Shown: one piece after another, positions 6,381-60,088 of the stretch
Position numbering within the stretch: the stretch's first letter is position 1
How the letters are laid out: each line of letters begins with the position of its first letter
Origin: Eledone cirrhosa
Taxonomy: Eukaryota
Length of the DNA stretch: 64,000 nucleotides
Reading direction: 5' to 3'
Assembly: GCA_964016885.1 (NCBI GenBank)
Contig: OZ024749.1
Coordinates: forward strand, 43,834,001 to 43,898,000
Translations under genes and position numbers: made by a program
Notes under the pieces: generated by a model
Told to the model about the DNA's origin: nothing
Databases searched by the model: none
The model's input: the letters and a program-made list of their open reading frames with translations, nothing else

Positions 6381-6990
6381 GTAATATATATATATAATAG
6401 ATTTATATAAAACAGTATATACAAACAGCAGCATATGTACTGTAGTGTATATATATATATATATATATATAAAATAGTCGTTTTGGAAGCCTCAACAATG
6501 CAGATGGGTAAATCTCTGGGTAACAAAACCAGGTGGTATTGAGAGAGGAGAAGTCAGAGGAAGCATAGAAAGAGACGTAGAGAGCATAAAAGAATGTAAG
6601 AAAGGTGTAAAATATAACAAGAGATAGAGTTACCTTGGAAGCGATTTAATAGTCCCTATCCTTCTCCAACACAACTCTTTCTCCTCAGAAAATCCCCCTG
6701 TTGATGGATGTGAAATCCAAAATATAGGGACAATTAAATCGCTTCCAAGTTAACTCTATCTCTTGCTATTATTTACCCCTTTCTTGTGTTCTTTTATGCT
6801 CTCTACATCTCTTTCTTTGCTTCCTCTGACTTTACCCTCTCTCAATACCACCTGGTTTTGTTACCCAGAGATTTACCCATCTGCTTCGTTGAGGCTTCAA
6901 AATCTCTATTTTTTTATATTCCACAATGCTTCAAGCAAACTTTAACACTCTCATGTACATATATATATATATACACATATATATATTATA

Positions 6991-13039: not shown

Positions 13040-15783
13040 TATATATCACCATCGTCCTTATCATCATAATTTTATGACAGCTTTCCATACTGGCAGGGAT
13101 TTGTTGGGTCATCCCAGTCCAACATTAAAGGTGCTGTGGAACCACATTTTGTTTAAATGTTTCATATTTTGGCATGGTTTCTATAGCTGGATGCCCTTCC
13201 TAACATGAACCACTTTACAGAGTATACTGGAAGGAAATTTCATCTCTAATCTTCATTGTTTCAGTCTCTTCATCACCTCTATGACTGTTCTTTAACAAAA
13301 ATATTTCTCTTTTAGTCAAACAATAAACTGAAGGAAATATTTTTCACAAAGAAGGAAGATTGCCAACTTCTATCAGCTGGTGAAGATCTAGATTTGTACA
13401 AGTCAGACATAGAGAACAACTACTTCCATTTGTTCTGTAACCAAGCTGAAATTGTAAGTTCCTTATAAATCATTTCTACTCTTTCTAAAAATTAATTACA
13501 AAATATTATACTAATTAACACTAAAATAATTGTTTCTGATTTAGGTACAAGGCCAACAATTCTGGGAAAGGGGAAAGTCAATTAAATATCCCCCAGTGTA
13601 CTTTATTTTATTGACCCTGTAAGGATGAAAGGCAAAGCTAACCTCGGTAGGATTTGAACTCAGAACATAAAGGAACATAACTATATGCAGCAAAGCATGT
13701 TGTCCAACTCTCTATTGATACTGTCAATCTGCCGCCCTTGATACTAATTAATACTAAAATAATTGTTTCTACTTTTGGCACAAGGCCAGCAATTACCCAG
13801 TGCATTACTGGTACTTTATTTTATCGACCCCGTAAGGATGAAAGGCAAAGTCAACCTCGGCGGGATTTGAACTCAGATCGTAAAGGGACGTAACTATGCT
13901 AGAAAGCATGGCATCCGACCCTCCACCAATACTGCCAATTCACCGAAGGCCAGCAATTACCCCAGTGCATTACTGGTCCTTTATCTTAATGACCCCGTAA
14001 GGATGAAAGGCAAAGTTAACCTCGGCGGATTTGAACTCAGGACGTAAAGAGCTATAACTCTATGCTGCAAAGGATGCTGTCTGACGCTCTACCGATACTG
14101 TCAAACCACCGCCTTAATTAATACTAAAATAATGATTTCTACTTTGGGCACAAGGCCAGCAATTTTAGTGGGGAGGAGAAAGTCAATTAAATCAACCCCA
14201 GTGCATTACTGGTACTTTATTTTATCGACCCCATAAGGATGAAAGGCAAAGCTAACCTCAACTTATATATAGTTTCCATCTAATGGGCTTCCATATAGCT
14301 TCCATCTATCCAGTTTCACTGGTAAGGCTTGGGTCAACCCAAGGCTATGGTAAAAACACTTGCCCAACATACAACTCAGTGAGTTTAAACCTGGAACCTT
14401 ATGGTTGAGAAGTAAAACCTCTTAAACACTCTACCATGTCTACCTACAGATATTACTACTGAGTAGTAAAACCTCTTAAACACTCTACCATGTCTACCTA
14501 CAGATATCACTACTGAGAAGTAAAACCTCTTAAACACTCTACCATGTCTACCTACAGATATCACTACTGAGAAGTAAAACCTCTTAAACACTCTACCATG
14601 TCTACCTACAGATATCACTACTGAGTAGTAAAACCTCTTAAACACTCTACCATGTCTACCTACAGATATCACTACTGAGTAGTAAAACCTCTTAAACACT
14701 CTACCATGTCTACCTACAGATATCACTACTGAGTAGTAAAACCTCTTAAACACTCTACCATGTCTACCTACAGATATCACTACTGAGTAGTAAAACCTCT
14801 TAAACACTCTACCATGTCTACCTACAGATATCACTACTGAGTAGTAAAACCTCTTAAACACTCTACCATGTCTACCTACAGATATCACTACTGAGTAGTA
14901 AAACCTCTTAAACACTCCACCATGTCTACCTACAGATATCACTACTGAGAAGTAAAACCTCTTAAACACTCTACCATGTCTACCTACAGATATCACTACT
15001 GAGAAGTAAAACCTCTTAAACACTCTACCATGTCTACCTACAGATATCACTACTGAGAAGTAAAACCTCTTAAACACTCTACCATGTCTACCTACAGATA
15101 TCACTACTGAGTAGTAAAACCTCTTAAACACTCTACCATGTCTACCTACAGATATCACTACTGAGTAGTAAAACCTCTTAAACACTCCACCATGTCTACC
15201 TACAGATATCACTACTGAGAAGTAAAACCTCTTAAACACTCTACCATGTCTACCTACAGATATCACTACTGAGTAGTAAAACCTCTTAAACACTCTACCA
15301 TGTCTACCTACAGATATCACTACTGAGTAGTAAAACCTCTTAAACACTCTACCATGTCTACCTACAGATATCACTACTGAGTAGTAAAACCTCTTAAACA
15401 CTCTACCATGTCTACCTACAGATATCACTACTGAGTAGTAAAACCTCTTAAACACTCCACCATGTCTACCTACAGATATCACTACTGAGAAGTAAAACCT
15501 CTTAAACACTCTACCATGTCTACCTACAGATATCACTACTGAGAAGTAAAACCTCTTAAACACTCTACCATGTCTACCTACAGATATCACTACTGAGAAG
15601 TAAAACCTCTTAAACACTCTACCATGTCTACCTACAGATATTACTACAACCCAATGACACAAGGAAACATCTGAAGCAGAAAAATTTATGACTAATGCTA
15701 TCGTTGCTAGTTACAGGCATTGTTGTACTGTCGGTCTCTCTCTCTTTCTCTTGCTTTCTCACTATATATATATATATATCCAC

Positions 15784-18800: not shown

Positions 18801-20909
18801 AAGTTGTCATCTGTCTTTTGACCTAAACTGAAAGGTCCTCCCAACCCCTTATTTAGCAAGCTTTCTATGGCTGAATGCCCTTCCTAATATCAACCACTTT
18901 GCAGTATGTTCTGGATGTTTTTATCATGGTTATGTAACTAAAACAATCTTAAACTGCCACTGATGACTATACAATTTTTAATAATTTCAGTTCCATAACC
19001 ACCATCTTGGAATCCTTCTGAAACTAAGAATATTATTAATGGATAATGAAGCTGGAGATGAATCAATTAAAAACAGTAAGAATATCACTTTACTTTAGAG
19101 AATAATTATTTCTTTATCATATGGCATATTACAGACATAAAATTATATGTATATATATATATATATATATATTATATTTACATGTGTATGTATTCCATGC
19201 CAAAAATGGAATATTTGAGCAAGACGTGGTTCTCCAACCTGTCTAGTCTCAAAGCATAACAACCCATCCAACCCATGCAAGTATGGAAAGCAGACGTTTG
19301 ATGATAATATTTTGAAGTTTTGTTTTGTTTTGTTTTGTTTTGTTTTGTTTTTGTGGAAATTTTAATTATCGTGACAAAATTTTAACAGATTTTGAAGCTA
19401 AACAATGGATTTAATAAAAACAATTTTTTATGTTTTCATCAAAAGGTTATTTTCAAAGAGAAGAGGTTAGTTAGTGGTACATAGACAACAAAGGAAAGTA
19501 GACAGACAGACGGCAGACATTTTAACTGCTTCTTTAAGATCAAAGACCAACTGAGATAGTTCGAAATTTATGATAGTTAATTTTAAACACATTGTTTGGC
19601 TTCCAAATCTATTAAACTTTTGTCACAAAGCTTCAAATTTCACCTTTAAAAAAATAAATTGTTTGAACTTTTTCAACAACTGAGATATGCTTATCTTTTG
19701 TTTTTCTCTTGCTTTGTCATGTCAAAGATTGGCAGGAATTTTCTGAAGGCAGCTACTGTCATTACTACTACCATAATATTTGAACTGTCTAAGTTAACCT
19801 TCAGGCCTTCTTAAGAGTGTTATATGTTCCATTGATATCTTTTCTTTGTAAATTATCTTTTGGTGGAAAATTCAGAAAAAAAGAAATAGAACAAAACTTT
19901 TTATTAAATGTATCTGGTTTCCAGACTTGTTCAAATATATACAGTTTCTAATAAATAAATACACTGCTACATATCTTGAATACTTTTCTTCTCTTCTTTG
20001 TACACACACATACAAAATCTGTTGGCAAATTTTCATATCTAAATTACCCATGAAATATCTAGTCCTAAGATATGTAACTATAACAATTGTGTTTTATCTT
20101 AAGCTGTTTCCTTTTAAAACTTTTATAAGCAATGTTTCTAATCTTTGATAATATTCAATTTAATTTAGTTTAATTTAAACATTTTTTTTTTTTTCAATTT
20201 TTCAGCCATTGAAAATTTATGTAACCACCTTGAATATAACATAGCTATTGGTTTACAAAGTTGTCACTTTTTGACCAATGCAAACAGGTTAATGATATTT
20301 TTGTGAATATTTATATATTATATTTTTCATAAAATTGTAGGAATCTCATATGTGAAAATAGCTGTAAAACAGTTAGCTACTAAAATGATCATAGCAAAGA
20401 GTTGTTTAACCCGACTCTTTGCTTCAAAAGGTTTTGTTTAACCTGACTCTTTGCTTCAAGAGGTTTTGTTTAACCTGACTCTTTGTTATGATCATTGTAG
20501 CAGCTGGCTGTTTTACAGCTTTTTCTGCATTGGCGATTCCTATAATTTTATGAAATATTTACACATTCAACACTCCAAATCATTTCATATCATATTATAT
20601 ATTAGAAATGTATACTGTCTGTATCTGGTTTAAAATAGGTCCAATGTGTTCCTCTGTGTTGTGAGAGGCAACTAAAAGGATTGGCACTAGGGAGGACATC
20701 ATCCAGCTGTAAAACATTGTCTCAAAAAGGACCCCATGTTGAGTACAAAGCCCATCATGGGTCCCACAAGGCTAATTTCTACTTTATCAAAGGAAATCAC
20801 CTTAAAGGCCTTGCTGTTCTTGTTGTTATATATTAGAATTTTCTTTAACCCTTTAGCATTTAAACCGGCTGTATCTGGCCAGAATTCTCTCACCTTTTTC
20901 TGTTCAAAC

Positions 20910-23737: not shown

Positions 23738-24713
23738 CTTTAAATATTATCACAAAATCAATTGATGACTGTTTAATATAAGTAAACTACATAACTTTTA
23801 TATATAATCTATAAACTTTGAATTAATTGCAGAAAGATGAGACAAATTTAGCTGCAACAGCTCTTGAGATATTTTTAAAAGGAAGTCATATGTCAACAGA
23901 AACGCTGACAGCATTGCGATGTCTCATTAGATTATTGTTGGGAAACAATGATGAACATGATCGGTATTGCTCTACTGTGTTATTTTATCATTCATCATCA
24001 TTTCATTTTATTTTACGTCCGCTTTTCCCTGCTTGCAAGGGTGGGACGGGAACTGATTCTGGCTTGATTTCTACAGCTGGATGCCCTTCCTAACACCAAC
24101 CTCATTTACAGTGAGTGCTGGGTGCTTTTTTTGCCGTGGCACCTCCACGACCACTTTGCAATGGAATGATAGGGACCCCAGTCCCTATCATCTCATTTCT
24201 ACAGCTGAGTAAACTGGAGCAATGTGAAATAAAGTGTCTTGCTCAAGGAAACAACACATCACCCAGTCTGAGAATTGAACATGAATTATGTTATATATAT
24301 TTTATATATGTTATATATATGTTTTATATATATATATATATATATAGCGAGTGTGGTGTTTGTCGGGTAATTTTTGGAACCATGATATTGCCTCAGATGT
24401 TCTGCTCCAGAGTGGAAGTGGTGAGGCAGCCCGCAATGATGGTAGAACTCTATCCAGGATCTTCTTACTGATAGAGCCGATGTCAGAACGAGTGGGGTTG
24501 ATAAGTCTGACTGATGGTTTGTTGAGGAAGTTTCCCTTATGGTCCTTCAGGGTAAAGTGCGGGGTCTTTACCCTTAAAGGTTCGGTTCGGTCGTGTAATT
24601 TAAGGGACTTGGCGATTTCTTTTCCGGCTCTATCAGTAAGAAGATCCTGGATAGAGTTCTACCATCATTGCGGGCTGCCTCACCACTTCCACTCTGGAGC
24701 AGAACATCTGAGG

Positions 24714-24748
<35 letters not shown>

Positions 24749-24766
24749 ATATATATATATATATAT

Positions 24767-27800: not shown

Positions 27801-30232
27801 AGCAGGGGAAAACTGGCATTAAATAATGATGTTTCTTTGTCTGTTTGTTATAGTTGACTACCCTGTGCCCTACTGATCTACATTCAATGTCACAACAGAA
27901 GACCTGCTCTTTAATAGTTGCTGCAGCTTACCTCCAGATGGCCTCAACAACTTCAGATGCAAATGAAAAAGTAGGTCCACAATTTGGTTAAGTAGTTCCA
28001 ACTATATTATCCCTAACTAATTACTAATAGTTAAGGCAACAATTTGGTTAAGTAATTCCAACTATAATCCCTAACTAATTACTAATAGTTAAGGATTTGG
28101 TTACATAACTCCCACTCTTTTACTCTTTTACCTGTTCCAGCCATCCGGCTGAGGCCATGCTGGGGCACCGCATGCATAATTCTTAAATACTTATTAAAGT
28201 AAACCAACAATTTGGTTATATAATTCTTTCTATATGATTCCTAACTCCTTACTAATCCAATAATTTCATTGAATAATTTTCACTACATAAATTTTTAACT
28301 AATTTCTATAATTAAGTCAATAATATAATATACTAACTGATCTCAATAAAGCTGTCAATATATATTTAACCTGTTTATTGCGGTATTTCTCATTAAAGAT
28401 ATTGCCAATGATTTTCCAATCATTTTGAATACACAAATTTGAAGGAATGTAGTAATACAACAAACTTTCTCGTGATTAAGAAACATAAAGGTTCTTATAT
28501 AGAATTATGATGGAAGTGTTTTCGATAAATATAAACACTTTACCCTTTACCATTTACGTTACTCTATATTTACTATTATATTTTCATGGTAAAGGCTTTA
28601 CCTCACATAATTATCTCACATAGTATCAAAGCTATGAGATTTTGATATTATTATTTTTTAGACCAATACCTTAACATCAGTATCAGTGGCAAGTTACAGC
28701 CGGTTTAACAGAAAGAGGTGAGAGATTTCTGGCTGGATATGGCCGATTTAAATGCTAAAGGGTTAAAGCTAGTATTTGAAACAAAGGTTCTTATATAGAA
28801 TTATGATGGAAGTCTTTTAGATAAATATAAACACTTTAAAGTAAACAGCTTTGTATCATAGAACCACATTTATATATTTATTATTTACAGAATACTTTAC
28901 TGACTGAAGCCCTTAATTATGTAAGCTGCTGTAGAATTGTATGCAACAAAATCCTTAGTGAAAAACTGATGACGACTGGTGAGTTGAAACATATTTTTTA
29001 TGTGATCTAGAGTTTGTACTGAAGTTGATTTCATGGACTCCCCACCCCCGGACTTCCCCACCCTTGCAAAAAATAATAATTATTGGCCTTGTGCCTAAAT
29101 CAGAAACTGTTGTTATTATTATCTAAATTTTTTTGTTCTCTCACCTCCAGATAATGAAAATAAAAAAGACACCGTTGACAAATTACTTCTCCTGTATGAG
29201 TTTGAATCGAGAGCCAAACTAAAAGACCCAGTTCTAGAATCTGTTCTTGAAAGAGCAGTTATGATGCCTTACAGTGATGCCAAAATGTTTGAAACAATAG
29301 CTGGTTAGTATCTGATACCATTTACATTTAAAGAAATAACTAATCAGTTGTTATCCAGCAACATGGCAGATATATCAGCAAGGACCATCTTGGCTTTCTG
29401 TGCTAGCATGGGTTGGATTAGGAAGGGAATGTGGGGAAGTCAGGAGTATAATGCCAATCAAGGAGCCCTGAATATATATGTGTGTATATATATATATATT
29501 TTTTTATAGTTATATATATTTTAAACCCTAAACAGTGAAAGACAGTAATTTATTACTTCCTTATTACCAGTAAGATAAATAGCTCAATATAATAACATCA
29601 GTTGTTCTACAGAGCGGTTATATAGAAATTACATGAATCAAAGACGAAACAATTGTAAGCTAATAAATGGTTTGAACAGAACTTTGATTCATGTAATTTC
29701 TCTCTATATATATAGAGAGAGAATTTAGTATATCTACCAACATATGCGTACAGATGTACGCTAATGCTAGCAAATACACAGGTTATGTCATAGTACCTAG
29801 GTGGTTCAATGCAGGAGGATGCAGAACAATAATATAAAAGACGTAAAATAAGAAAATTTTAAAAAATTAAAAAAATTAACTTACTTACTAAAATTTTCAA
29901 TCCAACTAATTAGTTTCTGCAATGGGATAAAGACAGTTACGTAATCTAACTGTCGAGAATTCATTGCGTCATCAGGGAGTCTATTCTCAGCTAAGTCTCC
30001 AGGCAATGCGCGGACACTGGGGACTCATATAAAAATTATTTTTATATGAGTCCCCAGTGTCCGCGCATTGCCTGGAGACTTAGCTGAGAATAGACTCCCT
30101 GATGACGCAATGAATTCTCGACAGTTAGATTACGTAACTGTCTTTATCCCATTGCAGAAACTAATTAGTTGGATTGAAAATTTTAGTAAGTAAGTTAATT
30201 TTTAAAATTTTTTTAAATTTTCTTATTTTACG

Positions 30233-30273
<41 letters not shown>

Positions 30274-31542
30274 GGAAATAAGAAAAAAAGTAGAAAATGC
30301 TAATGGGATTTTCTCATAGAATAACAGCAAAACATTTTTTTTAAAGTAATTTATCGTACCGGTTTCAGCCAATAAATATTTCGACTTCTTCATGCTACAG
30401 GAAATATGATATAAAGTATATAATAAAATTAAGGTGTATATTAATTAGAAGAAGGTATTAGAGAACATAGTTTACATATGTATAACACTTCACATTTTCA
30501 TTTATCTCTTTCTCCATCTTGGTGGTTTGGTGGTAGTAGCAGCTAAAATAGAAGTTGGCTTGTTCCATATATGTATATATTATTTCTTTGGTTTTTAATT
30601 CAAGCTTTAGCAGTTGACCCACCAGCTAACTATAAAAACCTCAGCATAAGAGCCTTAAAGCTGGCATTAAGGAAACATCTTCAATCAAGTCTACCTGATT
30701 TCATGGCTGTCAGGTAAGTTAATTAGAAATCTTTCATGTTAGACCAGCTTCATGTATCCTTGTTTACTTTCATTAATTGTTTAGACTGCTGTAGAGTAGT
30801 GGGTTATCAGAATCGGTAGAGCATCAGACAAAATACTTTGCAGTTTTTAGTTATGATTTTCTATGTTCTCAGTTCAAATCCTGACAAAATCAGTTTTGCC
30901 TTTCATTCTTCTGGGGTGTGGTGCTGGTTATTATGATGATGATTATAACAATGGTAATAGTACTGGTGGTGGTGGTGGTGATAATGGGGTTGGTGGTAGT
31001 GGTGTCGATAATGTAATGGTGGTGGTGGTGATAATGATGTGTGTGTGATAATGGTGGTGGTGGTGGTGGTGTCGATAATGTAATGGTGGTGGTGGTGGTG
31101 GTGATAATGATGTGTGTGTGTGATAATGGTGGTGGTTGTGGTGGCTGATAATGATGAAGTCTATAATGATGGTTGATGATGATAATGATGTATTTATTTA
31201 ATTTTCTTTACTTTATTATTATTCATCCAGCAAAAATTTCCACAGTATCATAGAACTGTGTTTTTCCCAAACTGGAGGAGACTTTCAGATTTCAGAAGCA
31301 CAAAACATTGGCACAACTCAAAGTGATCTTTTTACATATTTTGAAGAAGTTTTTGAATTTATTGAACAAAAGGCAAAGGTTGGTTAAATATATTGATTCT
31401 AATTAAATATGGTGAAGTGATAAAAAAAGATGTTGCTATGAGGTTAAGAAATTAGTTTTATAACGATGTAGTTGCAAGTCCTATCCTATATATATTCCAG
31501 TCTTAAGAATATACATTAAATTATTATATTATACGTACATAT

Positions 31543-31688: not shown

Positions 31689-33777
31689 GGAAGCATGTGA
31701 CCTAGTGGTCAGGATGTTGGACTTATGATCATAATGTCATGGGTTCGATTCCTGGGCTGGGTTGTGTTCTCGAGCAAAACAGTTCATTTCACGTTGCTCC
31801 AGAATACTCAACTGAAAATAATCACCAGCAATAGCTGAGGGTTTAACCCTGCGATAGACTGACATGTGTAAGTATTCAATGTGCCAAAAAAATTTCTTAT
31901 CTTTATCATTTAAATTATATTTTATTTTATTCCTAATTATGTTCTGATAGGATAAATACCCTGAAGTGGAAATTCTTTGGTTGATGTCCAAAGCCTGGAA
32001 TTTTGGAATACGTTTCTACAGGTATTTACAGATTTTTACCTTTCACCTTTAAATTTCTCCAATCTGCTTCCATAGGTAATAATATATTGTTTAGACTTAA
32101 TAAAATGAATCTTTCTTTATTAAATAAAATAGTAATTTTTTTTTTTTTTTTTTTTTTTTTGATTTTTGATTTTTGATTTTTGATTTTTTGATTTTTTGAC
32201 AGACATTGAAGGAGCTTGGTAGTTTTGGTTGAGCGTATGTCTAGGAGAATGATCACTCTGATTTTGAAACCAGAGTAGGTGGGACTTATTAGTCACTTAG
32301 GTGACAACCTTTCATGTAGCCAACAGTTTCAGCCTTGTGATGAAGGTAGATAAGCTGTGGCTTGGTAGCCAGCTCCTGAGTAATGGTCAGACAAGGACTC
32401 AAGACTCACCAACATCACTTTTTTCCCAATGACAGCGATGGACATATAGATTCAATTTGCTTCCGTTTACTAGATTATTATTGATATCATCATAATTTAA
32501 CATGTATTTTCATGCTTGAATAAGTTAAACAGGTTACTATGTTATGAGACTAGACAGGTCAAGTGGCCACACCAGGGATGGGTTAGATAGGTTACTATGT
32601 GATGAGACTAGATAGTTCAGGTTGCCACATCGTTTTAGGCTTGGTTTTCTATGGCTGGATGCCCTTCCTAACTCCAACCACTTTACAGTCGGTACAAAAA
32701 GTATTCTGTTGTGACACCACCTTACAGGATGGACTGGATGCTTTTTGTCATGACACCACCACTACCACCTTACAGGGTGGACTGGGTGTCAATTGTTGTA
32801 GTAACAGAACAACCACATGAAATAATTAAATATATGTAATTCACTGTACTGTAAATTATCTTCACAGCTCTAATAATTTTGTGGAAGCAGAAAAATGGTG
32901 TGCCCTAGGTATGAAATTTCAGAGACATTTGTCAACTTTGAAAACTACTTATGAAAAACAGGTAAGTTATTTATTTTCCCTTCAACTGTTTAGCATGTAA
33001 TTTAGGGGTGAGTTGAACTCCTACATTCTTCTTTCTACTGGTTACAGTGATGAGGGTGTGTGGCCATGCTGGAGCACTTTCATGGAGAGTTTCCGTCAAT
33101 TATATCAACCCCAGTACTCTCTCTCTCTCTCTGTCTAGTTCACTATTTCATCACATTCTTATACAAAATACGAAGTTGATATAACAGAAGGGACAATAAC
33201 TCGATGAGTACTACCAGTATATATGTATATATATATATAAATAAACACCCACATGTAGAGCTGTTTATACTACTGTATAATGTACCTGTATGCTCTAAGT
33301 AATGGATTGGTAACATTGTTAGAGCTTTGAATACAATATGTGAGGCTTTGGTTCTTATCTCTTTACATCCAGAGCTCACCTGTGATATCACTGAAACCAA
33401 GTTATGGGCTTTTGCCTTTCCCTTGGATAATGTAGGAGACATATATAGAGAGGTGAACTTGTATTCATAGGTAGCTGCTGGTCTTTCACAAGACACCTTG
33501 CTTACACTTGTATTTCAGATAGGAACTTTTCAGGTGAACACCTATGGTCAGTCATGACCAAAACAAATTTCAGAAACAAACCAAAATTTTTTTTTTTTTT
33601 TCTTTAATTAGTATTTCTCCAATTAAAATAATCTTCTATTCTATAACTTCACAAGAGGATCTAAATTTTCAACTGACTTAAATTTCATTTTATTTTTATT
33701 TATTTTAGATCACAACTGTCTACACTGAAATTCTTTCAAAAATCAGACCTGCCCCCTGGAAAAGTTTAACTAAATAA
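6338..33777 (+). CDS. TEX11: TEX11/ZIP4-like meiotic TPR protein, complete spliced gene (29 coding exons, 2823 nt, 940 aa)
   Basis: Hand-assembled exons join in frame with GT-AG sites. Peptides such as [83 protein letters not shown] and AEKWCALG match vertebrate TEX11 as recalled, in colinear order. Confidence 0.93.
6471..6913. repeat. Diverged inverted repeat (~190-bp arms, ~65-nt spacer with degenerate hammerhead core) in TEX11 intron
   Basis: 6471-6659 is reverse complementary to 6724-6913 with scattered mismatches; spacer reads CTGTTGA-T-GGAT..ATCC-AAAA-TAT-A-GGG. Confidence 0.85.
8051..8175 (+). CDS. TEX11: TEX11 exon 2 ([42 protein letters not shown])
   Basis: aag acceptor, gtaag donor, open frame. 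Confidence 0.8.
8598..8682 (+). CDS. TEX11: TEX11 exon 3 ([28 protein letters not shown])
   Basis: ctag/gtgag; AVxLWN motif. Confidence 0.9.
9369..9448 (+). CDS. TEX11: TEX11 exon 4 ([27 protein letters not shown])
   Basis: ttttatag/gtttgt; phases 1 to 0 consistent. Confidence 0.82.
9560..9815 (+). mobile_element. RTE-like LINE 3' fragment
   Basis: Degenerate YGHVVRM...RRLGGRP..RWLDNI peptide; related segment at ~58722-58830. Confidence 0.6.
10312..10342 (+). CDS. TEX11: TEX11 exon 5 ([10 protein letters not shown])
   Basis: tttcag/gtaag; 31 nt, phase consistent. Confidence 0.85.
10804..10853 (+). CDS. TEX11: TEX11 exon 6 ([17 protein letters not shown])
   Basis: tttcag/gtatgt; phase consistent. 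Confidence 0.82.
11066..11255 (+). mobile_element. tRNA-derived SINE, family B (gagttcaaatcccgccgagg..ctttgcctttcatcc..ggggtcgataaaataaagtaccag)
   Basis: B-box GTTCAAATCC plus conserved central block; copies near 2035, 9827, 21770, 30795, 37545, 40205, 45845, 53200-53765, 57330, 62940. Confidence 0.85.
12330..12560 (-). mobile_element. Degenerate RTE-like LINE 3' fragment
   Basis: Minus-strand [28 protein letters not shown] with stops. Confidence 0.5.
12570..12830 (-). mobile_element. SINE family C (ggttggtgttaggaagggcatccagctgtag ... cccatgctagcatggaa..gacgttaaa(tga)n tail)
   Basis: Many related copies near 13045, 24000, 26795, 32490, 48285, 48495, 49600, 52610, 56400. Confidence 0.75.
13316..13453 (+). 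CDS. TEX11: TEX11 exon 7 (SNNKLKE...[16 protein letters not shown])
   Basis: ttttag/gtaagt; 46 codons. Confidence 0.88.
13525..14260 (-). mobile_element. Cluster of four tandem family B SINE copies
   Basis: gacccc.taaggatgaaaggcaaag block recurs at ~13615, 13826, 13991, 14226. Confidence 0.85.
14407..15646. repeat. 54-bp minisatellite, ~23 copies, derived from a SINE 5' head
   Basis: Unit gag(t/a)agtaaaacctcttaaacactct/ccaccatgtctacctacagatatcactact, contiguous with a SINE remnant at ~14280-14440. Confidence 0.95.
16172..16252 (+). CDS. TEX11: TEX11 exon 8 ([27 protein letters not shown])
   Basis: gacag/gtaag. Confidence 0.9.
16825..16962 (+). CDS. TEX11: TEX11 exon 9 ([36 protein letters not shown]...)
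   Basis: tttcag/gtatg; LCYNFGVE motif. Confidence 0.93.
17992..18087 (+). CDS. TEX11: TEX11 exon 10 ([32 protein letters not shown])
   Basis: cttcag/gtgagt. Confidence 0.93.
18358..18589. mobile_element. piggyBac-type MITE, family P2
   Basis: TTAA|CCCTTT ... AAAGGG|TTAA; related remnants near 11400-11535, 17015-17609, 57875-58020, 60678-61015. Confidence 0.65.
18991..19075 (+). CDS. TEX11: TEX11 exon 11 ([28 protein letters not shown])
   Basis: tttcag/gtaag. Confidence 0.88.
20206..20287 (+). CDS. TEX11: TEX11 exon 12 ([27 protein letters not shown])
   Basis: polyT-cag/gttaat; phases 1 to 2. Confidence 0.85.
20952..21103 (+). CDS. TEX11: TEX11 exon 13 ([24 protein letters not shown]...[11 protein letters not shown])
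   Basis: catcag/gtatga; phases 2 to 1. Confidence 0.87.
21432..21517 (+). CDS. TEX11: TEX11 exon 14 ([29 protein letters not shown])
   Basis: tttcag/gtaagg. Confidence 0.92.
21614..21754 (+). CDS. TEX11: TEX11 exon 15 ([14 protein letters not shown]...[16 protein letters not shown]), TPR
   Basis: ttttag/gtaaaa; TPR-like sequence. Confidence 0.93.
22485..22587 (+). CDS. TEX11: TEX11 exon 16 ([34 protein letters not shown])
   Basis: ttctag/gtgagt. Confidence 0.92.
23240..23358 (+). CDS. TEX11: TEX11 exon 17 ([10 protein letters not shown]...[11 protein letters not shown])
   Basis: atacag/gtaatt. Confidence 0.9.
23833..23963 (+). CDS. TEX11: TEX11 exon 18 ([17 protein letters not shown]...[20 protein letters not shown])
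   Basis: ttgcag/gtattg. Confidence 0.88.
24347..24719 (-). mobile_element. Penelope-like retroelement RT-region fragment with perfect 95-bp inverted duplication
   Basis: 24622-24347 translates without stops to [12 protein letters not shown]...[37 protein letters not shown]...[21 protein letters not shown]; arms 24385-24479 and 24625-24719; (TA)n on both sides. Confidence 0.8.
25615..25652 (+). CDS. TEX11: TEX11 exon 19 ([13 protein letters not shown])
   Basis: long polypyrimidine tract-ccag/gtaata; 38 nt bridges phase 2 to phase 1. Confidence 0.82.
26253..26465. mobile_element. piggyBac-type MITE, family P1
   Basis: TTAA|CCCTTTA.CATTTA ... TAAAT.CTAAAGGG|TTAA. Confidence 0.8.
26609..26707 (+). 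CDS. TEX11: TEX11 exon 20 (AYKFLSE...LEATWFTKI)
   Basis: tttcag/gtaaat. Confidence 0.9.
27386..27456 (+). CDS. TEX11: TEX11 exon 21 ([24 protein letters not shown])
   Basis: ttccag/gtaaag; AWNLA motif. Confidence 0.93.
27854..27970 (+). CDS. TEX11: TEX11 exon 22 ([39 protein letters not shown])
   Basis: ttatag/gtaggt. Confidence 0.9.
28543..28762. mobile_element. piggyBac-type MITE, family P1
   Basis: CCCTTTACCATTTA ... TAAATGCTAAAGGG|TTAA; left site reads TTTA. Confidence 0.78.
28891..28978 (+). CDS. TEX11: TEX11 exon 23 ([29 protein letters not shown])
   Basis: ttacag/gtgagt. Confidence 0.88.
29151..29303 (+). CDS. TEX11: TEX11 exon 24 ([27 protein letters not shown]...KMFETIA)
   Basis: ctccag/gttagt; LLLLYEFE motif. 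Confidence 0.93.
29832..30242. repeat. 411-bp near-perfect palindrome (205-bp arms, single central base) with hammerhead-like motif in each arm
   Basis: Symmetry centre at 30037; three mismatches seen, all in an A/T run. Confidence 0.95.
30096..30173 (+). ncRNA. Type I hammerhead-ribozyme-like motif (mirror copy on minus at 29901-29978)
   Basis: TCC-CTGATGA(30099)-C-GCAATG..GACAGTTA/TAACTGTC..CATTGC-A-GAAA(30157)-palindromic ACTAATTAGT-T-GGA. Confidence 0.55.
30605..30713 (+). CDS. TEX11: TEX11 exon 25 ([36 protein letters not shown])
   Basis: ttcaag/gtaagt; an alternative in-frame tag acceptor lies 6 nt downstream. Confidence 0.88.
31231..31378 (+). CDS. TEX11: TEX11 exon 26 ([12 protein letters not shown]...[15 protein letters not shown])
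   Basis: atccag/gttggt. Confidence 0.88.
31951..32021 (+). CDS. TEX11: TEX11 exon 27 ([23 protein letters not shown])
   Basis: tgatag/gtattt; YPExEILWLMxKxWN motif. Confidence 0.93.
32868..32961 (+). CDS. TEX11: TEX11 exon 28 ([32 protein letters not shown])
   Basis: tcacag/gtaagt; AEKWC motif. Confidence 0.93.
33709..33777 (+). CDS. TEX11: TEX11 last coding exon ([22 protein letters not shown])
   Basis: ttttag acceptor, TAA at 33775-33777. Confidence 0.85.
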   Translation: MTTVYTEILSKIRPAPWKSLTK

Positions 33778-33983: not shown

Positions 33984-35427
33984 ACAGCATTCATTTGTGT
34001 TATTTTTAATATTTAAAGATTCATACATTTCTTGTTATACGTTCCACTGCAATGTTTGTTATTTTTAATAAAATATAATAATTACAACATACAAAGGTTG
34101 TCTTCTTTTTTTCTGTGTTCTCTTTCTCTTTGCTTTTTTTTTTTTTTTTTTCATGATATATATAGGCATGTGTCTGAGTGGTTAGAGGATTGGATTTACA
34201 ATCGTGAGGTTGTAATTTTGATTCCCAGACTGGGCAATGCGTCCTTGAGCAAGACACTTTATCTCACATTGCTTCTTCTGCCTGGAGTTGTGACCGACAG
34301 ATAGTATTAGCAATTGGAAAGGCCAATGGAAACATTGTTTCCTCGGTCCAATTTGACTAACTCCACTCCACTCATTAAGTGAATGAGGTCTGGGATCTTG
34401 TTGATAAACTATCGATATATATTTTATTCACAGTTGTATAAATAACATTACAAATATATTTTAAAAACATACAAGCAGTTAATACAGACATCTTGGACCA
34501 CAAACAACAAAAGGCAAGCGAGAGAGATGGACAAATGAACAGCTGCCAAACTAGAAGATAACAGTATCGCAAGGAGCACTACTTTTGTAGAGTTTATTTA
34601 TAAAACTGGATAAATGTTTATCCATTAGAAAGTCAACTAAAAACATTCATTTAACTGCAAACGTCACTAATGCTGAGTTCCTCAAGACGTTTGGTGGACT
34701 TGGGCTGCTGACAGCAAAGTCCTAGTCATCACTGGTGGCTCACCTCACTGAGGTGTCAGGTGATGACCGTGAGGGTGCCTGGTTACCTCAGTGCCTTAGC
34801 CTCACCATCCCCCGTTGTAATGCTGCGAGAATGTTGGTTTTCCTCAAAGTGTATAGTTAACCCCTAAGGGTGAGGTGCATCCAATTGTCGCACTTGGTGA
34901 ATTCCCCACGACCCTCTTTTTTCTTTCCTTTATCATTACTGTTCAATGAATTATAATATATATAGGCATAAAGAAATATATCTATAAAAAAAAAAAAAGA
35001 AATATATATTATATACATATATATATTTTTTTCTCTTTCCCCCGAAAGGGGGAAAAAATGTCTTAACTCTACTTACATATGAAATATAAGATAAGACTGT
35101 AAACGTTTTTGTTCGACTCTTTTATTTTTGGCTGCAAAGACAAAAATAAAAGGAGTAAAGTTAAACAAAAACGTTTACAGAGTTTTCCACTTTCGGAGAA
35201 AAAAAAGCAAATGGAGTATAGCAGCGATGGTGGTGGCGAATTAGACTCTCCTTACTTACTTCCCTTGAATTACAAGAGTTGCCTCCCTTGGAAATTTTTT
35301 GTTATTTATGTTATTATAGATATATTATTGCCAATATTTGATGTTTTTACATCGGAAAAATGAAATAAAATATATTTTGCTATTTTTTTTTATTTATTTA
35401 TTTATTTATTGTGCTTTTTAAATATTG

Positions 35428-35965
35428 GTACATATGTGGCTGTGTGGTTAAGGAATTCACTTCACAACATAACAATAGTACAGATATGGTTGTGTGGTTA
35501 AGTTCACTTCACAATATAACCATATCTGTACTATGGTTGTGTGGTTAAGGAGTTCACTTCACAACATAACCATGGTATAGATATGGCTGTGTGGTTAAGG
35601 AGTTCACTTCACAACATAACCGTGGTATAGATATGGCTGTGTGGTTAAGGAGTTCACTTCACAACATAACCATGGTATAGATATGGCTGTGTGGTTAAGG
35701 AGTTCACTTCACAACATAACCGTGGTATAGATATGGCTGTGTGGTTAAGGAGTTCACTTCACAACATAACCATGGTATAGATATGGCTGTGTGGTTAAGG
35801 AGTTCACTTCACAACATAACCGTGGTATAGATATGGCTGTGTGGTTAAGGAGTTCACTTCACAACATAACCATAGTACAGATATGGCTGTGTGGTTAAGG
35901 AGTTCACTTCACAACATAGCCATAGTACAGATATGGCTGTGTGGTTAAGGAGTTCACTTCACAAC
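35428..35965. repeat. 50-bp minisatellite, ~10.5 copies, SINE-head-like unit
   Basis: Unit atatggctgtgtggttaaggagttcacttcacaacataacc(a/g)tggtatag. Confidence 0.93.

Positions 35966-45645: not shown

Positions 45646-60088
<14,443 letters not shown>

Follow-up and report, generated by a model that had tools for sequence, protein, structure and literature searches.

The palindrome in an intron of the TEX11/ZIP4-like gene of Eledone cirrhosa is very probably a pair of 5'-truncated copies of one abundant hammerhead-repeat end, lying head-to-head between TA tracts, which a Penelope-like retroelement (PLE), probably of the Hydra clade, is likely to have left in one recent insertion. All positions refer to the window, the whole stretch of 64,000 nucleotides that was analysed. 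The real unit extends from about 29728 to 30242 and joins a long, tailed copy to a tail-less one, with the TA tracts outside. A sequence-only reading of this DNA had placed the element at 29832..30242. This extent holds for the palindrome itself, but not for the whole element, since the family sequence reaches left at least to 29728.

The host intron occupies 29304-30604 on the plus strand, with GT at 29304, AG ending at 30604, and collinear exons on either side. The upstream exon (29150-29303, plus strand, start placed within 1 nt) was delimited by reads, protein identity and tblastn. A contig from run X4 matches 29150-29303 with no differences and ends at the donor site, and the exon is 96-98% identical to three octopod TEX11/ZIP4 proteins, two of them named (Argonauta hians and Octopus vulgaris). 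The downstream exon (30605-30713, plus strand) is 97% identical to residues 775-812 of P0001. According to tblastn, TEX11 exons follow in order on the plus strand from 6338 to 32964. Pfam returned SPO22 and TPR domain matches for the host gene that scored below the curated cut-offs. The collinear exons and the exon identity to octopod TEX11/ZIP4 bear out the earlier placement of the palindrome in a TEX11 intron. Another high-depth repeat edge was seen at 29090-29122, just upstream of the exon at 29150.

The two arms, at 29832-30036 (minus strand) and 30038-30242 (plus strand), are 205 nt long each and 99% complementary, confirming for the assembly the 411-bp near-perfect palindrome described before. 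A single nucleotide, T30037, separates them and lies within a 21-nt pure A/T centre. Mismatches were found at 3 of the 205 arm positions (29870/30204, 29869/30205 and 29860/30214), and each reflects a shift in run length within an A/T tract towards the outer ends. Across the inner 166 positions the arms are identical, which gives a 95% upper bound of 1.8% for arm divergence and supports the earlier suggestion that the arms are young or homogenised. Long spacerless palindromes with A/T centres are generally unstable. The left arm is a 5'-truncated, pLTR-like repeat end in antisense to TEX11, as judged by read depth and by loose ends past 30036. The right arm is the tail-less inverted copy, sense in the TEX11 pre-mRNA and fused to (TA)n. 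The sequence on the right is a (TA)16 tract (30238-30270), the likely right-hand target, and the likely left-hand target is a short CT/TA/AG tract (29700-29721) that is common to a neighbouring insertion.

Reads were mapped onto 29090-30070 at 85% likeness, using 4 of 12 runs: X1 (1693 mapped records), X4 (106), X10 (7680) and X9 (9). X1 may be the assembly's own sample, X10 consists of RAD reads from a different sample labelled as the same species, and X9 is from another organism. Runs X2, X3, X5-X8 (small share), X11 and X12 were left out, and the mapping skipped 29850-29889 (a repeat that contains the three mismatches) and 29694-29727. In X1, the summed word depth was 199,500-312,500 on the bins from 29882 to 30013 and 7.6 on the unique intron and exon; summed contig depth is not a copy number, and we read these values as "very abundant", roughly of order 10^4. 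The RAD reads of X10 stacked on the arm and were missing from most unique bins, and the repeat family was also found in the other organism (X9).

In all four runs, family copies ran past 30036 into other sequence, with one common start of the loose ends. Both arms are thus 5'-truncated at nearly identical family positions, because other copies of the family continue beyond the centre with different sequence. On the other side, contig pieces from X4 (29728-29848) and X9 (29729-29849) cross the arm edge at 29832, showing a tail on the left copy with no counterpart on the right one. This one-sided tail (29728-29831, minus strand) is at least 104 nt long and is covered by repeat depth in all four runs. 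Read joints from 29994/29995 to 30070 and the depth on 30047-30070 were set aside as proof of the centre, since family reads fit either arm.

No convincing reading frame was found in the arm or the tail. Metagenome scans with two patterns of the family gave 0 and 0 matches. Nine short motifs from the locus and the neighbouring elements had no exact match in the supplement of PMC8557442, where line breaks can split matches. Naiad_Ovul, annotated there as "HHR_half_core", was considered as a parent and rejected, as the short motifs were not found in the supplement; by eye, the arm did not resemble the 3' end of either Naiad_Obim or Naiad_Ovul.

The sequence-only reading had described hammerheads placed back-to-back in the two arms, and this anatomy was recovered, with one motif on each strand. 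The motif of the right arm (30094-30175, plus strand) is of type I, with a 3-bp helix I, a two-part helix II, a 3-bp palindromic helix III and a GUU site. Its mirror image in the left arm (29899-29980, minus strand, core at 29975) is antisense in the TEX11 transcript. The core boxes are intact, with CUGAUGA at 30099-30105 and GAAA at 30157-60 on the plus strand, and 51 nt separate them across the helix II domain. Helix II begins with 6 bp (30107-12 with 30150-55), which a 7x7 internal loop separates from an 8-bp hairpin. Helix III lies inside a perfect 12-nt palindrome (30159-30170), and the GUU site, with U17 at 30170, is an NUH site. The non-canonical C.A reported earlier at 10.1-11.1 was a misassignment: G30107-C30155 is a canonical pair, and C30106 and A30156 are unpaired flanks of helix II.

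A motif scan found four hammerhead matches in the window, of which three (both arms and 24956) have a helix III closed by C-G, and none in any of 30 shuffled windows (single-base shuffling in 200-nt blocks). Rfam gave no match of any kind at the gathering score in the window, and no hammerhead up to E 10 near the locus. Its 28 weak matches near the locus included no hammerhead, were mostly miRNA-precursor models fitting the hairpin, and all fell below the cut-offs. Separately, a short hammerhead family with a GUA site, whose helix II has a U at either side, is present as three solo copies, at 951 (plus), 24956 (minus) and 49263 (minus).

The family base at 29900 is C, which gives a 5-bp helix I on the sense strand; both arms in the window have only 3 bp. 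In X1 the depth for C was 301,088 out of 301,140, and in X10 the base was C in 19 of 20 reads; X4 and X9 showed C throughout their depth. As the private helix I change is common to both arms, both should derive from one template, and the sequence supports either such a single template or later conversion. The 5-bp helix I of the family supports the view that the family carries a genuine hammerhead. The ribozyme in the TEX11-intron copy is probably damaged, with two of the five family helix I pairs lost, and is likely weak anyway. In a single arm the active fold is predicted at -15.9 kcal/mol and the best fold at -18.4 kcal/mol, 2.5 apart. PLE minimal hammerheads are poor cleavers or depend on protein (PMC4209133, PMC11167929).

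As read from the sequence, the flanked helix II and the GUU site are documented features of PLE hammerheads. Helix II entries flanked by unpaired bases on either side occur in File S2 of PMC8557442, and by our count over 26 rows the cleavage site has U in 10 of 25 Hydra-clade families. PLE hammerheads also conserve an additional base after A9 (PMC4209133). The hammerhead style and the (TA)n target would fit a Hydra-type element by comparison with File S2, yet the C/A flank of helix II is listed there for PLE-X1_cBra, and no Hydra row of that file has a helix II domain as long as 51 nt.

Two splice-like features were seen in the copies. In the long copy, the stretch from a GTAAGT donor-like site after the hammerhead through a run of pyrimidines to the first AG, at 29797 (29888-29797, minus strand), could be a pLTR intron of about 92 nt, as in Penelope. 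The donor-like site of the right arm (30186-30191, plus strand) has the same orientation as TEX11 and might be used in cryptic splicing.

The full palindrome is predicted to fold into a hairpin of -338 kcal/mol in which the ribozyme helices are absent, with a predicted pairing probability of about 1e-44 for helix II. Sequestration of the ribozyme in the pre-mRNA, as proposed earlier, is thus supported as a prediction. The accompanying idea of a special arrangement that neutralises self-cleavage was not upheld: the arms are a truncated abundant repeat, the layout is that of a described PLE product, and helix I has already lost pairs. PLE hammerheads are thought to act as dimers (PMC4209133), and the two motifs cannot dimerise in cis because the TEX11 transcript contains just one of them, that of the right arm, in sense orientation.

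Action of ADAR or Dicer on the TEX11 pre-mRNA hairpin is plausible. In animals, Octopus among them, A-to-I editing falls mainly on young inverted repeats (PMC9989829), so that editing would be expected here without showing function by itself. In X4, which looks spliced and is not on record as RNA, we counted 11 A>G, 10 T>C, 12 C>T and 11 G>A differences. The counts in X1 were similar (8, 13, 14 and 13, respectively), and the contigs mix many copies rather than representing this locus.

The same PLE-like layout was found in three more units within the window, at 2241-2606, 24347-24760 and 29520-29701. The unit at 2241-2606 is a second young head-to-head palindrome, from another hammerhead-like family with the core variant CCGACGA and a GUA site. 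It has 109-bp arms (2265-2373 and 2378-2486), a 4-nt spacer, a tail of about 70 nt on the right, and TA tracts on both sides. The unit at 24347-24760, in a TEX11 intron, is a Hydra-type PLE reverse-transcriptase fragment with TA flanks, 95-bp perfect inverted arms (24385-24479 and 24625-24719) and a 38-nt one-sided tail. Relatives of the fragment 24347-24719 are proteins of about 700 aa with RWK, DKT and CxCx5C, which are marks of the Hydra clade (PMC8557442); Pfam gave these relatives no name. The neighbouring small inverted insertion (29520-29701) belongs to yet another hammerhead family, as indicated by repeat depth and by loose ends before 29646. Its 20-bp inverted arms (29624-29643 and 29682-29701) are accompanied by a tail of about 104 nt on the left. 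It carries the 3' half of a hammerhead at 29646-29657, and the missing 5' half is supplied by the loose ends.

In all three hammerhead-bearing pairs, a small hairpin with a GYUC/GARC base lies just beyond the end of the tail-less copy, at distances of 4, 6 and 8 nt. In the TEX11-intron unit this candidate cis-element lies at the start of the tail (29804-29827, minus strand), 4 nt beyond the end of the short copy. A strict scan with the hairpin motif, which was defined after viewing the data, gave three matches in the window (two in the tails, with the third tail missed) versus a mean of 0.47 in 30 shuffles. The fold z values of the tail hairpins were -0.34 (29804-29827, not significant alone), -2.33 and -1.45. 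Similar small hairpins were seen by eye in the Hydra-2_Amil, Hydra-1_Ajap and Hydra-2_Ajap consensi (PMC8557442 supplement). We regard the position of the tail hairpin near the ends of the short copies as a lead, not a result.

Other repeats were noted in passing. Older, imperfect inverted repeats (73-82%) lie at 6463-6919, 20319-20561, 48223-48747, 48961-49217 and 53427-53773; some are next to TA tracts and could be decayed units of a like kind, and others resemble pairs of dispersed repeats or MITEs. Homogeneous minisatellites occupy 14406-15647 (in a TEX11 intron), 54147-54765, 35426-35965 and 1-435, with periods of 54, 18, 50 and 68, respectively. A 123-aa open frame at 33143-33514 (minus strand) resembles, by eye, a fragment of a LINE reverse transcriptase, a likeness that Pfam does not support.

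The TEX11-intron unit combines a head-to-head 5'-truncated copy, a one-sided tail, a hammerhead in a pseudo-LTR and a (TA)n target, which are the traits of a PLE insertion. In such insertions a 5'-truncated copy in inverted orientation and a tail at one end only are frequent, and (TA)n is favoured as a target (PMC8557442). In Adineta vaga, head-to-head inverted pLTRs of Penelope are common, with palindromes at the junction that were read as self-priming (PMC3846280), and pairs of minimal hammerheads have been described on opposite strands, 100-700 bp apart (PMC4209133). With purified PLE protein, both strands are cut and extended, and synthesis begins at two sites on the RNA, which accounts for the tail; the PLE hammerhead requires protein and is dispensable for insertion in vitro (PMC11167929).

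By this route, the endonuclease of the element would cut a (TA)n tract, and reverse transcription would be primed from both target strands at two RNA sites. A start beyond the tail hairpin would yield the long copy and a start just before it the short copy. Both cDNAs would then halt in an A/T-rich stretch and be joined by microhomology or, alternatively, one strand might fold back and prime itself. The junction contains only one extra family-matching base (T30037), too little to separate the joining of two cDNAs from fold-back. In the TEX11 pre-mRNA, the antisense (left) arm would be transcribed first, and the sense arm would then pair with it into a duplex of about 200 bp. This duplex would be an ADAR substrate as a by-product, and the ribozyme would stay unfolded. 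A host function is not needed to explain the palindrome, which is probably ordinary repeat debris and not a ribozyme with a built-in safety catch.

Several findings count against a PLE origin. No RT-encoding parent was linked to the arm family by the metagenome scans or by the motif search of the PMC8557442 supplement. The tail, at 104 nt or more, exceeds the published 30-40 nt, and the 1-nt spacer is tighter than independent 5' truncation predicts. The arm hammerhead is unlike that of Hydra-1_Obim, and its helix II exceeds that of every Hydra row of File S2.

We also considered that the right arm might be an artefact of assembly or of a fold-back read, with a single copy in the genome. The near-zero spacer, the confinement of arm differences to homopolymer runs and the fact that the centre is spanned by none of the read pieces listed would fit this explanation, and tandem and inverted PLE units are known to trouble assemblies (PMC8557442). 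An artefact is nevertheless quite unlikely, because the two sides are flanked differently, the TEX11 exons continue in order, and the short copy ends as other insertions do, that is, 4 nt before the tail hairpin, with the two others stopping 6 and 8 nt before theirs. The copies end at different family positions, and a fold-back read would have continued inverted into the left flank instead of halting at (TA)n. The probability is about as low, if not slightly lower, for a non-autonomous element of another class, either a MITE-like DNA element with a palindromic structure or the monomer of a non-LTR retrozyme, copied in inverted orientation during repair. The unit is short, non-coding, very abundant and TA-flanked, and its hammerhead is of type I as in non-LTR retrozymes (PMC7229834). 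However, the family sequence crosses the left arm edge and the centre, so that the palindrome is not the family unit, and the family unit has no fixed terminal inverted repeats at the palindrome bounds as a MITE would. A retrozyme is also disfavoured by the lack of any head-to-tail repeat of the hammerhead unit within the window, and animal retrozymes have been reported as PLE-derived (bioRxiv 10.64898/2026.07.22.740005).

We attach hardly any probability to a selected regulatory device, in which the antisense arm would be retained either because it silences a harmful ribozyme in the intron or because, as a source of substrate for ADAR or Dicer, it tunes TEX11. The predicted duplex would mask the ribozyme fully, and the preferential editing of young inverted repeats (PMC9989829) would suit such a role. 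Against it, the insertion mechanism accounts for the layout without selection, and other families in the window share this layout. Moreover, helix I is damaged in both arms, the active fold of a single arm is less stable than the best fold, and the PLE hammerheads described in PMC4209133 and PMC11167929 hardly cleave unaided. A recent PLE insertion remains our preferred explanation.

The architecture of the palindrome is already published. The Hydra clade is present in Octopus (Craig et al., 2021, PMC8557442), and its EN+ PLEs share with the TEX11-intron unit a hammerhead near the 3' end, unpaired bases flanking helix II, a helix III of 3-4 bp, a frequent GUU site, (TA)n targets and, by eye, a small hairpin downstream of the hammerhead. 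Penelope-13_HM from the same source likewise has an inverted 5'-truncated copy and hammerheads on both strands. The arm sequence differs from Hydra-1_Obim, and unlike Hydra-clade PLEs the unit has a longer, two-part helix II, a tail of at least 104 nt and no linked frame. The type I fold with palindromic helix III, the G10.1-C11.1 pair, the extra base between 9 and 10.1 and the opposite-strand pairs 100-700 bp apart are as in minimal hammerheads of metazoan PLE pseudo-LTRs (Cervera and de la Pena, 2014, PMC4209133), where helix I has 4-5 bp, compared with 5 bp in the arm family. Unlike those hammerheads, the arm motif has an extra base before G12, a 51-nt helix II and a damaged helix I.

The inverted pLTR junctions of Adineta vaga (PMC3846280) are similarly head-to-head, form palindromes where the copies meet and have a one-sided tail, but mostly include a reading frame and short target duplications, whereas here a solo pair with a 1-nt spacer lies between TA tracts. 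Non-LTR retrozymes (PMC7229834) are also non-coding, high-copy and a few hundred bases long, with a type I hammerhead, but form head-to-tail repeats that yield circular RNAs, whereas the TEX11-intron element is an inverted pair. In the literature covered, which comprised few subscription papers and neither Repbase nor preprint supplements, we found no description of the arm family or of the hairpin geometry.

The single locus matters little, being a retroelement insertion into an intron, with a known architecture and undisturbed order of the host exons. More broadly, we tentatively consider, as a possibility that we think will probably not hold in full, that octopods harbour an undescribed, very abundant PLE family with a long two-part helix II, and that Hydra-type elements routinely insert as near-spacerless palindromes whose tail-less end lies 4-8 nt before a conserved hairpin, the clade's reverse transcription start signal. 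If the geometry holds genome-wide, it would provide a testable cis-signal for the start of Hydra-clade reverse transcription, and a young-to-old series of palindromes for measuring the decay rate and the strength of ADAR editing in octopods. If true, such insertions would continually supply perfect intronic dsRNA in the animal lineage in which A-to-I editing is heaviest.
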